Of a DNA stretch of 64,000 bases, positions 57,190-62,222 are shown piece after piece. This DNA is from an uncultured Lachnospiraceae bacterium (GTDB lineage: Bacteria > Bacillota > Clostridia > Lachnospirales > Lachnospiraceae). Every line of letters starts with the position of its first letter. Position 1 is the stretch's first letter. A model generated the notes under the pieces. That model saw only the letters and a program-made list of their open reading frames with translations. It did no database searches and was not told the origin of the DNA. Both the position numbers and the translations under genes were made by a program. The DNA lies in assembly GCA_902789175.1 (NCBI GenBank), contig CADANF010000010.1:11466-75465 (forward strand). The letters run 5' to 3'.

Positions 57190-59807
57190 TGAATTTAGTG
57201 CCTAGAAATGCCACACTTGCGGAGGCATTATATAGGGATATTGACAAAAATGATTATTTACAGGAAATCTACGGAGATCTTTTGTATAACTACTCAATAA
57301 AGCTATTTCATACAGACAGAAGACCACGTGATATTCCTATTAGTGATGCTTTGCGTTTTGCTGATTTGCTATCAAAGTCATCTTATCCAATTACTTCTGA
57401 TAGAGATCACTTGTGGGGACAGGAAATTGCCATTCTTTTGCGTTTACTTTATCCAGAAGATAAGGCAGTAAAATACTATCTAGGTTCTGTGCTTTCGTCT
57501 GTCGGAAATTATCGTGGTTTAATGTCAAGGACGATAGAAGGATTTCAATGTAAAGATTTCTTTGATAGCATTTATTATGAGTATGACAAAGAAGAACATC
57601 GAATTCCAGGTAAGGATGAAGAGTATTTTTTTAATGACCAAATGCTGGTTTATAAAGGCTTAAGGGAAAAAGTCTTCAGTTACTCTGGACCGACTTCTAT
57701 GGGAAAATCATTTGTTGTACAGACATATATTCAACAACAAATCGAGAATGGATCGACAGATAATTTTGCAATTCTCGTACCAACGAAGGCTCTTATTAAT
57801 GAAGTTAGAAGCAATATGATAGGAACTCTTCAGGACAAACTTAAAGAATTAAATTATCGTGTGGTCACTGCATCGGGAGATTTGGTTTTACAACAAGATC
57901 ATCATTTTATATTTATTATGACCCCAGAGCGTTTGCTTCATATGATGATTGAACGAGATAATATTAATATAGATTTCTTGTTTATTGATGAAGCTCATAA
58001 AATTTCAGCACGTGGAGGAAGAAGCTCATATTACTATAAAGTTCTTACACAGTTAGGAAGTATGCAACAATTACCAACAGTAATTTTTGCTTCTCCCAAT
58101 ATTCCAAATCCAGAAATATATACGAGGGTTATTCCAGGAATAGAACAAACACAAATGAAGAAGTTGATATCAAGATTTGCTCCTGTGTGTCAGTTCAAAT
58201 ATTTTTTGAATGTTCCTGAAAGAAGTGGTTATTATTACAATGATTATAGTAAAAAATTAGAACGTTGCTATACCTTACCCGAAGGACAAGAATTATGTGA
58301 TATTGTTGCTACAGTAGGTCAAGATAAGCAAAATGTTGTTTATTGTAGTTCACGAAGAAGTGTACTGGAACAGGCTGTAAAATATGCAAGTAATATTGCA
58401 CCGAAGACAGATGAAGGTCTTATTGCATTAGCTGCAGAAATAAGAAAGGAAGTACATGATGACTGTTATCTTGCAGATTTAATTGTAAGAGGAGTTGCAT
58501 ATCATGTGGGATATCTTCCAGCAAATATCAGGCTCCGTATAGAAAAGAGTTTTGAAAAGGGAGATTTAAGAACTATTTTCTGTACGAGTACCCTAGTAGA
58601 GGGCGTAAATCTTCCAGCAGATAACTTGTTTATTACTAGTTATCGAAACGGTCCTAGCAACATGGACGAAGTGGATTTTAGAAATCTTGTAGGACGAGTG
58701 GGAAGAATTAAATATAACCTGTATGGCAATGTTGTTCTAGTCAGATTAGACGATAAGCTTAAGGCAGAACGTTATACTGAACTCCTTAAAAAGGAAGTGC
58801 CGGCACAGGAATTATCTATTGACATAAAGAACAATACGGATTGCATGAGTGCCCTTGTTAAGGATTTGGCTGATGGAGACATCGAGATGACTACTTGCCA
58901 TGAAAAGGCAACAGAAAAGGATTTCGAGGCACTTCGTAAGTTTGGTCTTATTTTGATAAGAGATTTGGCGAATGGAGACAGTACTCCGGTATCACAAAAG
59001 TTTGATGAGTACCTAACTGAAAAGCAAAAGCAACGCATTATAGAAAATTTTCCTACTGAAAAAACTAGTGATGATATTACGATTTCACATGACCAAGCAA
59101 CTAACTTGCACGATGCGATTTTACAGGGTCTACATTATCCTGAATTACAAGGTGAGGACGATGATGTGGATTTTGAGAAAGTGGTTGACTTCATGATGAT
59201 GCTTCGTAGATTGTTTAAGTGGGATATTTATGAAAAAGAAACATTAGGAAAACCGGGAACTTATAGACTAGACTCTGTTATTCGATGGTATTCAACGATT
59301 TTACTTCGTTGGATTCGAGGAAATGGATTGCAAGTATTAGTAAGCAGTGCTGTCAGTTATAAAGAAAAGAATCCTAATACAGGGGTATGGTCGGGGCAAT
59401 ACAAAGTATCAGATATATATAATAAAAATTCAAAATACCACAAGAATTTAGTTATTGCTGAATCTTTGAGTGTAATAGAAAATGTTTTGCTATTCAGCAT
59501 ATCAAATTATTTCAGAAAGTTTTCACTTGAATATAAGGCAATACACAACCTTGATCATTTTGATAATGATTGGTATGAGTATGTGGAATATGGAACTACC
59601 AACCCAGATACTATATTTCTTCAGCAAAGTGGATTTTCTAGAGAAGCTTCATTGTACATACAAAAACCATCAAATTATGCAAAATATGTGGTTGATGACA
59701 ACGGTATTAAAAAAATAAAAATAAGCATTCTAGGATGCGGCAACATTGGTGTAGAAACTGAAGCAGCAGACATTCAGTACAATATGCCAGAGCTGTTTAC
59801 TGAATAG
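57189..59807 (+). CDS. HamB-like SF2 DEAH helicase
   Basis: GPTSMGKS, TPER, IDEAHK, AYHVG, STLVEGVNLP, NLVGRVGR. TGATG overlap with the HamA-like gene. Confidence 0.85.
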   Translation: MNLVPRNATLAEALYRDIDKNDYLQEIYGDLLYNYSIKLFHTDRRPRDIPISDALRFADLLSKSSYPITSDRDHLWGQEIAILLRLLYPEDKAVKYYLGSVLSSVGNYRGLMSRTIEGFQCKDFFDSIYYEYDKEEHRIPGKDEEYFFNDQMLVYKGLREKVFSYSGPTSMGKSFVVQTYIQQQIENGSTDNFAILVPTKALINEVRSNMIGTLQDKLKELNYRVVTASGDLVLQQDHHFIFIMTPERLLHMMIERDNINIDFLFIDEAHKISARGGRSSYYYKVLTQLGSMQQLPTVIFASPNIPNPEIYTRVIPGIEQTQMKKLISRFAPVCQFKYFLNVPERSGYYYNDYSKKLERCYTLPEGQELCDIVATVGQDKQNVVYCSSRRSVLEQAVKYASNIAPKTDEGLIALAAEIRKEVHDDCYLADLIVRGVAYHVGYLPANIRLRIEKSFEKGDLRTIFCTSTLVEGVNLPADNLFITSYRNGPSNMDEVDFRNLVGRVGRIKYNLYGNVVLVRLDDKLKAERYTELLKKEVPAQELSIDIKNNTDCMSALVKDLADGDIEMTTCHEKATEKDFEALRKFGLILIRDLANGDSTPVSQKFDEYLTEKQKQRIIENFPTEKTSDDITISHDQATNLHDAILQGLHYPELQGEDDDVDFEKVVDFMMMLRRLFKWDIYEKETLGKPGTYRLDSVIRWYSTILLRWIRGNGLQVLVSSAVSYKEKNPNTGVWSGQYKVSDIYNKNSKYHKNLVIAESLSVIENVLLFSISNYFRKFSLEYKAIHNLDHFDNDWYEYVEYGTTNPDTIFLQQSGFSREASLYIQKPSNYAKYVVDDNGIKKIKISILGCGNIGVETEAADIQYNMPELFTE

Positions 59808-59821
59808 TAACAGATGTCTTT

Positions 59822-59856
59822 AAGACCTCTTGCGAAAGCGAGAGGTCTTTTTTTTA
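59822..59856 (+). terminator. Intrinsic terminator closing the defence operon
   Basis: AGACCTCT-TGC-GAAA-GCG-AGAGGTCT plus T8. Confidence 0.88.
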
Positions 59857-59871
59857 TGCGTTTTTTTACTT

Positions 59872-59910
59872 TCCCAATTCACTCCCAAAGGTCTCCCAAC
59901 CATTCCCCAA
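59872..59910 (+). repeat. Four CCCAA motifs phased at exactly 11 bp
   Basis: CCCAA at 59873, 59884, 59895 and 59906. Confidence 0.8.
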
Positions 59911-60001
59911 GTGGGCATATATAAATCAAAACCATATTTTTTTATACTGAAAGAGGCTTAAGAAAACAAGCTACTTTTAAGAGAAAGTGAGGTGGCTGGC
60001 A

Positions 60002-60142
60002 ATGGGTAAGAACTCAAAGCAAACATCCAAGATAGTTGCTTCGAAAGCAAGCAAAGTTCTTCGTGATGGAAGATTCAGCAAGACATCAAAGTCTGTAGCT
60101 GGAAGTGCATTAGCACAAACAAGACCAGGCAAGCGTAAGTAA
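60002..60142 (+). CDS. 46-aa Lys/Ser-rich basic small protein (missed by the ORF track)
   Basis: GAGGTG RBS, then MGKNSKQTSKIVASKASKVLRDGRFSKTSKSVAGSALAQTRPGKRK*. Confidence 0.75.
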   Translation: MGKNSKQTSKIVASKASKVLRDGRFSKTSKSVAGSALAQTRPGKRK

Positions 60143-60424
60143 GACTGGCACCTTTGGTGGGCAGAGCGAGATTGGATAATCATCCTGTCCACCTCCCTTC
60201 GGGGAAAACACAAATATTAAATATCACAAGGCCTGATTAGCTATAAGGGCATTGGGATACAGATATCGACATCAACCGCAGGACAACCTGTGGAAGGTGT
60301 GATAGAGGTACCCTTATTTCCTTATGCCCTTTTTCAGGCTTCATGGGTCGGTACTTCTATAAGCGCCGGCCTTTATTTGTTCCCATTGCCCTTCTGCAAG
60401 AACCAGGCAGAAAGGCAGGAACTT

Positions 60425-60940
60425 ATGAAAATCAAGATTCGTTATGAGAACGAGTATCAGACCCTTGAGGTCGAAAACGTGGAATTAGAGAGATGGCTTA
60501 ATATCTCCATTTCAGAAAATGAAAGCCAGGAAGACTACGAACAGAGAATCCAGGATGTAATCGAAGAGAGATTCAACAGACCCGATTACAACAGCTGGCA
60601 CAAGCATGACCGTCACACTGGCAATGCTTATATGAAAAGCAAGGACGGAACAGTTGAGGTCAACACAGAAGAAGCAATTATGTACAGAGCAGCTGATAAG
60701 TCAGCCTTTAACAGTTCTATTGACGGAGTACATAACCAGCTTGAATACGAAGAGTGCTGTGAAACTTTGAGAAGTCTTCTTAAACCTGCAGTGGCTGATA
60801 TGGTCATTGCCATTGCCCTTGACGGATACACCGTTGGCGAGTATGCAGCAGAAATCGGTGAGGATGCCAACACTGTCAGTCATCGTTACAGACGTGCAAT
60901 CAACAAATTAAAAAAAGTTTTTTCAAAAACGTCCTTTTAA
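60425..60940 (+). CDS. Sigma70 region-4-like HTH regulator
   Basis: C-terminal GYTVGEYAAEIGEDANTVSHRYRRAINKLKK. RBS supports ATG 60425, not 60290. Confidence 0.8.
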   Translation: MKIKIRYENEYQTLEVENVELERWLNISISENESQEDYEQRIQDVIEERFNRPDYNSWHKHDRHTGNAYMKSKDGTVEVNTEEAIMYRAADKSAFNSSIDGVHNQLEYEECCETLRSLLKPAVADMVIAIALDGYTVGEYAAEIGEDANTVSHRYRRAINKLKKVFSKTSF

Positions 60941-61008
60941 CCCTTCTCCCAAGGCTACCAGGTAGGAGGGTGACACCTCCGAGAAATTAATTTAAGGAGG
61001 TAATTCGT

Positions 61009-61776
61009 ATGGAATTACAAGTATTTAACAGCACAGAGTTCGGCTCTGTAAGAACAGCAACTGTAAACGGTGAGGTTATGTTTGTCGGCAAGGATGTTGC
61101 AGACATTCTCGGGTACCAGAACGGTAGTCGAGATATCAACCGCCATGTAGATGAAGAGGACAGACACAAGGTAATGATCTTTGACGGTAACCAGGATAAG
61201 GAAACCATCATCATCAATGAGTCTGGACTTTACAGTCTTATCCTTTCAAGCAAGATGCCGAATGCGAAGAAGTTCAAGCATTGGGTTACATCAGAGGTTC
61301 TTCCAGCTATCCGTAAGCATGGAATGTATGCCATCGATGAGATCTTAGAAAATCCTGATCTTGCGATTGCAGCACTCACACAGCTTAAGGAAGAGCGTGA
61401 GAGAAGAAAACAGCTTGAATGTCTGGCACTTGTTCAGCGTCAGCAGATTGCAGAACTCCAGCCAAAGGCAAGCTACTATGACCTTATTTTACAGAACAAG
61501 AACACAGTACCTATTACACAGATTGCAAAGGACTATGGTATGAGTGGTCGCAAGTTCAATGAACTTCTTCACGAACTTGGGGTTCAGTACAAGTTCAGAA
61601 AGACCTGGCTTTTATATCAGCACTATGCAGAGTGTGGATACACACAGTCCCGTACCTACGCAATTGATGAGAGCAGAAGTGTGATGCATACCTACTGGAC
61701 TCAGAAGGGCAGACTTTTCCTTTATGACCTTTTGAAGAATGAAGGGATCTTACCAGTTATCGAACAGGAGGATTAA
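61009..61776 (+). CDS. BRO-N / ANT(KilA-C) phage antirepressor
   Basis: FVGKDVA.ILGY, INESGLYSL, FKHWVTSEVLPAIRKHG, ITQIAKDYG, WTQKGRLF. Confidence 0.92.
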   Translation: MELQVFNSTEFGSVRTATVNGEVMFVGKDVADILGYQNGSRDINRHVDEEDRHKVMIFDGNQDKETIIINESGLYSLILSSKMPNAKKFKHWVTSEVLPAIRKHGMYAIDEILENPDLAIAALTQLKEERERRKQLECLALVQRQQIAELQPKASYYDLILQNKNTVPITQIAKDYGMSGRKFNELLHELGVQYKFRKTWLLYQHYAECGYTQSRTYAIDESRSVMHTYWTQKGRLFLYDLLKNEGILPVIEQED

Positions 61777-61781
61777 GAGAT

Positions 61782-62222
61782 ATGGGTGTTGATAAGTTTA
61801 ATCACGAAGGGTACTTTGACCCGACCACATATGAGGCTCTTACCAACATCCACCGTGAGGAAATGGCAGCTGATAAAAAGGCTGCCTATCTTCCTTTGGT
61901 GTATGTGTGCAGTCCATATGCAGGTGATGTTGAAACCAATGTAAAGAATGCAAAACGATACAGCAGATTTGCTGTTGATGAAAATGCTATCCCGGTAACA
62001 CCTCATCTTTTATATCCACAGTTCATGGATGACGGTAATGAGGCTGAAAGAGAGATGGCTATGCATTTCAATTATGTACTTCTTGGCAAATGCACAGAGG
62101 TCTGGGTCTTCGGTGGAGTGATTAGCCGTGGCATGGCTCGTGAGATTGGTGTAGCTAAGAAAAGAAGAATGAAGATCAGATGGTTTACCCAGGATTTGAA
62201 GGAGGTCGGAGAATATGATTGA
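61782..62222 (+). CDS. Phage protein, nucleoside deoxyribosyltransferase-like (DUF4406-like) fold
   Basis: VYVCSPYAGD, PHLLYPQF, CTEVWVFG..S.GM..E pattern. Confidence 0.7.
   Translation: MGVDKFNHEGYFDPTTYEALTNIHREEMAADKKAAYLPLVYVCSPYAGDVETNVKNAKRYSRFAVDENAIPVTPHLLYPQFMDDGNEAEREMAMHFNYVLLGKCTEVWVFGGVISRGMAREIGVAKKRRMKIRWFTQDLKEVGEYD

Follow-up and report, generated by a model that had tools for sequence, protein, structure and literature searches.

A covarying prophage leader RNA upstream of a sigma-like gene, proposed as a two-state switch at the entry of an early operon

The leaders that are controlled by terminator and antiterminator formation in Firmicutes (riboswitches and T-box, PyrR-, TRAP- and LicT-type attenuators) share a four-segment logic with a U-tract terminator, are positioned directly upstream of the regulated ORF and contain distal helices that covary. 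The same features were found at positions 60229-60424 (~200 nt, + strand) of the window, which denotes the whole 64,000-nt stretch of DNA analysed here from an uncultured Lachnospiraceae bacterium (assembly GCA_902789175.1, contig CADANF010000010.1). This segment is a strongly conserved prophage RNA leader of gut-bacterial hosts, and an alternative translational platform, as in the Firmicutes attenuators, was apparent in some members of its family. In contrast to those attenuators, the leader matches no Rfam 15 family, its putative sensor is a rod of ~110 nt without branches, read-through would be tied to the unmasking of the ribosome site by a second, long-range decoy pairing, and the leader is phage-borne, with a sigma-like early regulator as its predicted target.

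Two groups of phage RNAs also come close. The CI RNA of the satellite phage P4 (seqA/B/C) and the c4 RNA of P1/P7, which controls ant (icd-ant), act in trans after processing and belong to enterobacterial phages. They share with the present leader the location in an early or antirepressor operon leader, a single segment with two complementary sites and premature termination as the outcome (predicted here), whereas every pairing of the present leader can act in cis and the c4 models do not match it. The HK022 put RNAs and other processive antitermination RNAs (EAR) are likewise structured RNAs that precede a terminator close to the beginning of a phage operon. The put RNA acts on RNA polymerase without pairing with the terminator, whereas in the present leader a covarying helix competes directly with the terminator stem. 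On the evidence given below, the leader is likely to be a cis-acting two-state RNA switch of a prophage early operon that controls the sigma-like gene at two levels.

The leader was found between a Lys/Ser-rich basic ORF of 46 aa (60002..60142, + strand; phrog_5079, PHROG E = 4e-23) and the gene of a sigma-like phage protein of 171 aa (60425..60940, + strand, ATG at 60425; PHROG match to phrog_11138); the 46-aa ORF heads the operon. The sigma-like gene is followed by genes for a Bro-N/KilAC antirepressor, for a protein with DUF7768 and for a primase-helicase of the D5 type. On the upstream side, the window contains a Hachiman pair and, at 59822-49, a strong terminator, and related phages were found to contain other upstream cargo such as ABC-3C; the region is the start of a conserved prophage early module, beside variable defence cargo. 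The Pfam matches of the sigma-like protein were weak (Sigma70_ECF just above the cut-off, Sigma70_r4_2 below its own) and all NCBIfam matches were below their cut-offs. In Foldseek, its AF2 model matched sigma factors only, with an rmsd of 1.3-1.6 A over ~60 aa in region 4 and a weak match for the whole protein (E 6e-3 or worse). Region 4 was clear and the N-terminal part was divergent. The solid part of the assignment is the sigma region 4 fold; the protein may be the master regulator of the element. At the DNA level, the region of the 46-aa ORF was 78-79% identical to sequence of two phages, one of Streptococcus uberis and one of C. innocuum, both of which gave no blastn match to the leader. 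The small basic ORF was rejected as an obligatory partner, being present upstream of only 36 of 120 elements (30%).

The + strand of 60143-60430 was found to fold at -108.5 kcal/mol (z = -5.43), and none of 200 shuffles folded as well. The 5′ part of the leader forms a rod domain (60229..60341, MFE -48.1 kcal/mol; the sensor or anti-antiterminator) that contains the helices P1, P1b, P2 and P3 and the apical hairpin P4. P1 was found to contain 8 pairs with one G-U between AGGCCTGA (60229-36) and TCAGGCTT (60334-41), followed by the perfect pairing of AAGGGCAT (60245-52) with ATGCCCTT (60324-31) in P1b. GGG-A-UAC (60254-60) pairs with GUACCC (60308-13) in P2, which was nearly invariant and 98% paired across the family. 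P3 (60264-73 with 60296-60304) and P4 (60276-93, with 60276-82 paired to 60287-93 and one G-U) were compensatory in 9 of 9 and 7 of 7 pairs, respectively. The same unbranched rod, from P1 to the apical P4, was obtained in 18 diverse members that were each folded separately, with GCCUGA paired to UCAGGC in P1. All helices of the original prediction were recovered where it had placed them, with G-U as the mismatches of the + strand, and its alternative pairing of ATAAGGG (60243-49) with CCCTTAT (60311-17) was found to be perfect in the window.

The rod is followed by the presence of an intrinsic terminator in the computed fold, with stems 60345-52/60365-72 and 60354-56/60361-63 and a T tract at 60372-81. 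The hairpin stem at 60345-72 and the T tract TTTATTTGTT ahead of the ORF have the general form of an intrinsic terminator, and a simple promoter/terminator scan missed it because of an internal mismatch in the stem. A further hairpin (60387-97 with 60407-17) covers the Shine-Dalgarno-like GAAAGG at 60410-15. Two other helices were found on the + strand: helix B, the antiterminator, in which ATAGAGGTACC (60302-12) and GGTACTTCTAT (60350-60) form 11 pairs with one G-U, and the long-range helix P5, in which 60245-57 is complementary to 60381-93 at 12 of 13 positions. The segment 60381-93, directly behind the T tract, is a distal mimic of the rod 3′ strand, and part of it lies in the 5′ arm of the ribosome-site hairpin. 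The pattern UCC..AUGCCCUU....CAGGC was present twice, at 60319-60339 and at 60381-60408, and the tract after the terminator (60381-60408) looks like a diverged duplicate of the rod 3′ strand (60319-60339). In the fold that contains helix B, the P1 5′ strand has a further possible partner in the CAGGC at 60404-08.

Covariation among homologues, on which the original prediction had staked itself, was present. On the model-based alignment A4 (71 sequences), 91.1% of the cells of the rod and terminator were paired against 37-43% with the partners slid, and both sides were changed in 30 of 48 pairs. The MAFFT alignment A2, which is fitted to no structure, gave the same picture (89% paired, 23 compensatory pairs). 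On A4, P1 was 95% paired and P1b was the weakest rod helix with 83%; in one subfamily a manual reading of the L053-type sequences gave another pairing register for P1b. The main stem of the terminator was 95% paired on A4, with 8 of 11 terminator pairs compensatory, and the T tract was conserved in the MAFFT alignment A1. P1, P2 and much of the 5′ strand were conserved and did not covary, and their support is therefore partly conservation; shuffle tests are, moreover, inflated by relatedness among the family members.

Helix B was 89.9% paired, with 5 of 11 pairs compensatory, against 36-48% with the partners slid, across 71 sequences in an alignment that was fitted to the rival fold. It was kept with changed letters in the distant members L178, L179 and L201-L203, as GGAGUGC with GCACUUC in L178, GAUGUAC with GUACAUC in L202 and GAAGAUG with CAUCUUC in L203, the last of which also contained a compensatory P2 (UGC with GCA). 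For P5 on A1, 86% of the cells were paired with 4 compensatory pairs. The mean duplex energy of P5 was -16.9 kcal/mol for cognate arms, -13.5 kcal/mol for non-cognate (different) arms and -9.6 kcal/mol for shuffled tails, and the cognate mean was reached by 0 of 2000 permutations. The hairpin that had been predicted over the ribosome-binding site of the next gene lies at 60387-60417 and was 93% paired across the family, with one compensatory pair and an invariant GAAAGG in A1.

Helix B uses the 3′ strands of P3 and P2 together with the 5′ arm and loop of the terminator, so that neither the rod core nor the terminator can form alongside it. A pseudoknot was considered and rejected: with P1 and P1b formed, just 8 nt (60342-49) must span ~20 stacked pairs. 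Helix B also shares letters with P2 and P3 and is taken as an alternative fold. The word pseudoknotted in the original prediction is not supported, as helix B replaces P2 and P3 and does not coexist with helix A (P1 and P1b). The succession of anti-antiterminator (rod), antiterminator (helix B) and terminator is the classical chain. The predicted cis-regulatory switch in front of the sigma-like regulator is supported by covarying and mutually exclusive helices, a terminator and a ribosome-site hairpin, and a constant gene link (125 of 127 elements, see below).

In the proposed OFF state, the 5′ strand (60229-60260) would pair with the nearby 3′ strand (60308-60341) into the long rod, by which the segment AUAGAGGUACC would be locked. 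The terminator hairpin (60345-72) would then form and RNA polymerase would halt at the T tract, and any RNA that leaked through would keep its ribosome site hidden in the hairpin at 60387-60417. In the proposed ON state, the 5′ strand would be prevented from closing the rod, so that AUAGAGGUACC would pair with GGUACUUCUAU as helix B, the 5′ arm of the terminator would be taken up and the polymerase would read on. The freed 5′ strand would pair with the downstream copy of its partner at 60381-93, and probably also with 60403-08, and P5 would pull open the ribosome-site hairpin and expose GAAAGG and the ATG. In the computed fold with helix B and P5 enforced, the Shine-Dalgarno sequence and the ATG were unpaired.

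The rod with the terminator was found to fold at -62.5 kcal/mol against -53.6 kcal/mol with helix B enforced, and the whole leader at -84.7 kcal/mol against -72.8 kcal/mol in the ON fold. At the decision point, for an RNA that ends at 60362, the values were -50.2 kcal/mol and -43.7 kcal/mol with helix B. By these nearest-neighbour energies the ON fold is 9-12 kcal/mol less stable, which suggests that the default is OFF and that an outside factor would be needed. The best guess for the trigger is a trans-acting factor, a protein or a small ligand, that would bind the near-invariant 5′ strand or the P2 region co-transcriptionally.

A search of 59000-62000 with cmscan against Rfam 15 (E up to 10), the check that had been proposed for the RNA, gave nothing that overlaps 60207-60424, and the nearest match was PhotoRC-I at 60191-60206 with 12.4 bits against a gathering score of 45. 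The families covered comprise riboswitches, T-box and other leaders, c4 antisense RNAs, self-cleaving ribozymes and ROOL/GOLLD. The suggestion of a ribozyme found no Rfam ribozyme match. For a T-box there was likewise no Rfam match, and helix B is a continuous duplex of 11 bp without a bulge. The leader is a new RNA family of the attenuator or riboswitch-like kind, outside every curated family tested. No description of it was found in the literature searches; the paper on Heliusvirales has no mention of sigma, terminator or riboswitch (PMC11283538). The available part of a catalogue of structured RNAs from the human microbiome contains unnamed candidates near Bro-N or Sigma70 domains, of which the Bro-N candidate HMP2_11368 has 62 nt, and the leader motif strings were not found in the available portion of the catalogue files (PMC8040213).

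Leader copies were collected from ~129 elements (~37 effective clusters at 90% identity). With a blastn query of 581 nt, of which 34-73% was covered, the leader was found to be 76-90% identical in Ruminococcus phages filed under Ca. Heliusvirales and in Terrisporobacter phage TPDSL_ph1, and the sigma-like gene was present downstream in every one of these matches. A protein-guided scan gave 37 viral loci, and the leader was still recognisable where the downstream protein was ~34-36% identical; the leader is more conserved than the protein encoded downstream of it. Two DNA patterns added ~100 viral and ~40 genomic loci. The hosts, by record title, were Lachnospiraceae, Oscillospiraceae, Peptostreptococcaceae, Peptoniphilaceae, Erysipelotrichaceae and Anaerofustis, with further loci in MAGs whose titles carry the labels Fusobacterium and Sneathia. 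The covariance model R1 detected one copy in the genome of the window (191 bits) and, in diverged form, further copies in 7 of the 149 other genomes that were sampled from the class. The same family of sigma-like proteins was found downstream in 125 of 127 elements with an iterated HMM.

Several copies were found to depart from the common form. The GC-rich members L157, L158 and L165 kept the rod and did not contain the terminator arm GGUACUUC; in their MFE folds the Shine-Dalgarno sequence and the AUG were buried in long hairpins, which looks like a translational platform; such an exchange of the terminator is also seen in riboswitch classes. A variant group (L044:2860-3309, L097, L068, L075, L081, L082 and L087) contained the 3′ half of the leader only, as GUACCCUUAUUU...UUUAGGC...GGUCGGUGCU, with a different 5′ half, and continued into a seemingly non-coding, GA-rich stretch of >350 nt. 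This L044-type group was detected neither by the model R1 nor by Rfam. Two leader copies (L139 and L153) were present on different contigs of Lachnoclostridium phytofermentans KNHs2131, a species that is cultivable and genetically studied and offers a practical experimental system. Other cultivable carriers, by record title, include Anaerostipes faecalis AGMB03513, Dorea phocaeensis Marseille-P4003, Longibaculum muris DSM 29487, Anaerofustis stercorihominis DSM 28733 and Peptostreptococcus stomatis DSM 17678. A near-identical copy (L109) was found on a 6-kb contig of a MAG labelled Bacteroidaceae, the sequence of which diverges right past the terminator, and it is probably a binning or assembly artefact.

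The 75 nt upstream of the leader were found to be modular, with different modules in other phages. The window contains the type A module (60156..60205, + strand), which consists in the computed fold of a long hairpin (60156-93) with a conserved GAUUGGAUAAUCAACC loop and a small CUCCC/GGGAG hairpin (60194-60205). Type B contains a long hairpin, the arms of which vary yet remain complementary by eye, and ends in AAGUGCCAGAGGCACUU. Both may be further regulatory RNA modules. In L173 and L176, ~30-60 nt upstream of P1, unrelated hairpins were found with the 3′ arms AAUUAGGCU and AAUCAGGCC, which are complementary to the P1 5′ strand and would extend the chain by a further alternative pairing. As a general feature, such an upstream segment against P1 was rejected, as it was clear in L173 and L176, reached 6 bp in type A and was absent from type B. 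The simple scan gave no + strand promoter within or just upstream of the leader, and a search for -10/-35 elements at the conserved boundary AATATCAC gave an A/T-rich run ending in T with no consistent -35. Four metatranscriptome runs contain the region as assembled contigs, the pieces of which end at ~60242, 60382 and 60210; these positions are borders of the block that is common to many phages, and the ends are read as assembly breaks and not as RNA ends, so that they speak neither for transcription nor for termination.

The explanations that compete with or refine the two-state switch differ first in the trigger. A protein trigger, in which a phage or host RNA-binding protein would bind the emerging invariant 5′ strand (GCCUGAUUAGCUAU...GGGAUAC) as in Bgl/Sac-type or PyrR/TRAP-type attenuation, or the sigma-like protein would regulate its own synthesis, is a serious though tentative candidate. 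The 5′ strand was found to be more conserved than its pairing partner, with GCCU at >=97% against ~75-97% for the P1 3′ strand. In the internal loop between P1 and P1b (window 60238-60245, TTAGCTAT), the hexamer UAGCUA was replaced by UACGUA in otherwise near-identical copies (L029/L047/L063/L078/L043/L157), with the 6-nt palindrome preserved; the palindrome could serve RNA dimerisation or a dimeric binding protein. The unequal conservation of the strands and this symmetry-keeping swap point together to sequence-specific recognition. The strict link to one protein family also favours a protein, and the default-OFF energetics would call for an active antiterminating factor. Against it, no candidate protein was found, the small basic ORF accompanies only the 30% of loci given above, the genes upstream are variable cargo, and the sigma-like protein shows only the DNA-binding fold of sigma region 4.

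The same two-state leader with a small-molecule trigger is a more doubtful possibility. The rod, with its P2 region and internal loops, would serve as the aptamer of a riboswitch that binds a metabolite or a second messenger of the host, by which the prophage would read the state of the cell before making its early regulator. Such an aptamer would fit the near-invariant nucleotides around P2 and the P1-P1b internal loop next to the freely covarying distal P3 and P4, the lack of a consistently co-occurring protein partner and the two expression platforms, termination or sequestration of the Shine-Dalgarno sequence and AUG, that appear in the MFE folds behind the same rod. The rod is, however, a simple unbranched hairpin, and its conserved letters lie mostly in helices with 2-3 alternative partners. 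P2 and the P1 5′ strand are invariant where P3 and P4 covary, and multiple alternative pairings can also explain this invariance. Moreover, the rod accompanies the terminator, so that a ligand must destabilise the rod or else act to switch OFF on a fold that is already the most stable, and there is no metabolic gene context that suggests a ligand. A more specific proposal is slightly more speculative still: the rod would belong, as its aptamer, to an undescribed class of riboswitches carried by phages, and would sense an alarmone, a cyclic nucleotide or some other host signal that reflects the state of the cell. If it were true, the switch-on of the sigma-like early regulator and the antirepressor would be decided by this RNA in widespread gut prophages, including Ca. 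Heliusvirales, as an RNA-level input to the lysogeny-lysis decision.

It is unlikely that the terminated product of ~150 nt, rod and terminator together, is a trans-acting phage immunity RNA in the manner of the P4 CI or P1/P7 c4 RNA, which would pair with the two complementary sites of incoming or own leaders, although 60245-57 is complementary to two sites of the same leader (60319-31 and 60381-93), an antirepressor gene is present in the operon and the leader is almost identical among different phages, by which cross-immunity would be possible. Cis action fully explains the covarying antiterminator and the ribosome-site hairpin, the c4 models of Rfam gave no match and the metatranscriptome contigs give no sign of processing or of a stable small RNA. 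When the genome of the window was searched for trans antisense partners of the 5′ strand of P1, 30 near-matches were counted, fewer than the 59 of the reversed control; no further target sites were thus found beyond chance.

Conservation at the level of DNA (an operator, an origin, a packaging or recombination site or a cruciform), with the RNA folds incidental, is very improbable. Several 6-bp palindromes were found (AGGCCT, TAGCTA, GATATC and GGTACC), symmetry is kept when TAGCTA becomes TACGTA, and the minus strand of 60143-60430 also folds well (z = -3.96). Against this, TAGCTA/TACGTA is the only palindrome conserved as such, pairing is kept by compensatory changes in helices up to 140 nt apart, the family contained 339 G-U/U-G cells against 78 A-C/C-A cells (~4:1), and the covariance model scored ~190 bits on the + strand against at most 41 on the minus strand.

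It is hardly credible that the region is translated, either as a leader peptide or as an extension of the sigma-like protein at its N-terminus that would start at GTG 60290 or farther upstream. The sigma frame is open from 60221 to 60940 in the window, and a longer CDS was annotated in the GenBank record PV036417. Among 63 representatives, however, just 17 had the frame open over at least 150 nt upstream of the ATG. In most homologues it is shifted by non-triplet indels, among them one of 1 nt directly ahead of the ATG (AACTTATG against AACTTTATG), and no start codon or Shine-Dalgarno sequence is conserved in the rod. The extension from 60290, which the original prediction had named as its other point of failure, is thus not conserved. 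Two leader peptides were also rejected: a UUG or AUG before GGGAUAC was seen by eye in some subfamilies and was absent from others, and a 12-codon ORF from 60323 was interrupted by indels in homologues. The excess of G-U over A-C together with the lack of conservation of the ORF extension indicates a + strand RNA, and neither a protein nor a DNA hairpin.

In the guts of humans and animals, such prophages rank among the most common. The leader of the proposed two-state switch stands at the entry of their early operon, beside the antirepressor and replication genes. To the known attenuators it adds a design in which one strand has a decoy copy farther downstream, by which antitermination and the exposure of the ribosome site would be coupled. 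Covariation supports a well-defined family, its ON and OFF folds are clear-cut and several of the lysogens can be cultivated, which makes the control step directly testable. Through the factor that flips the leader, be it a ligand, a protein or an RNA, prophage induction in gut Firmicutes could be manipulated.
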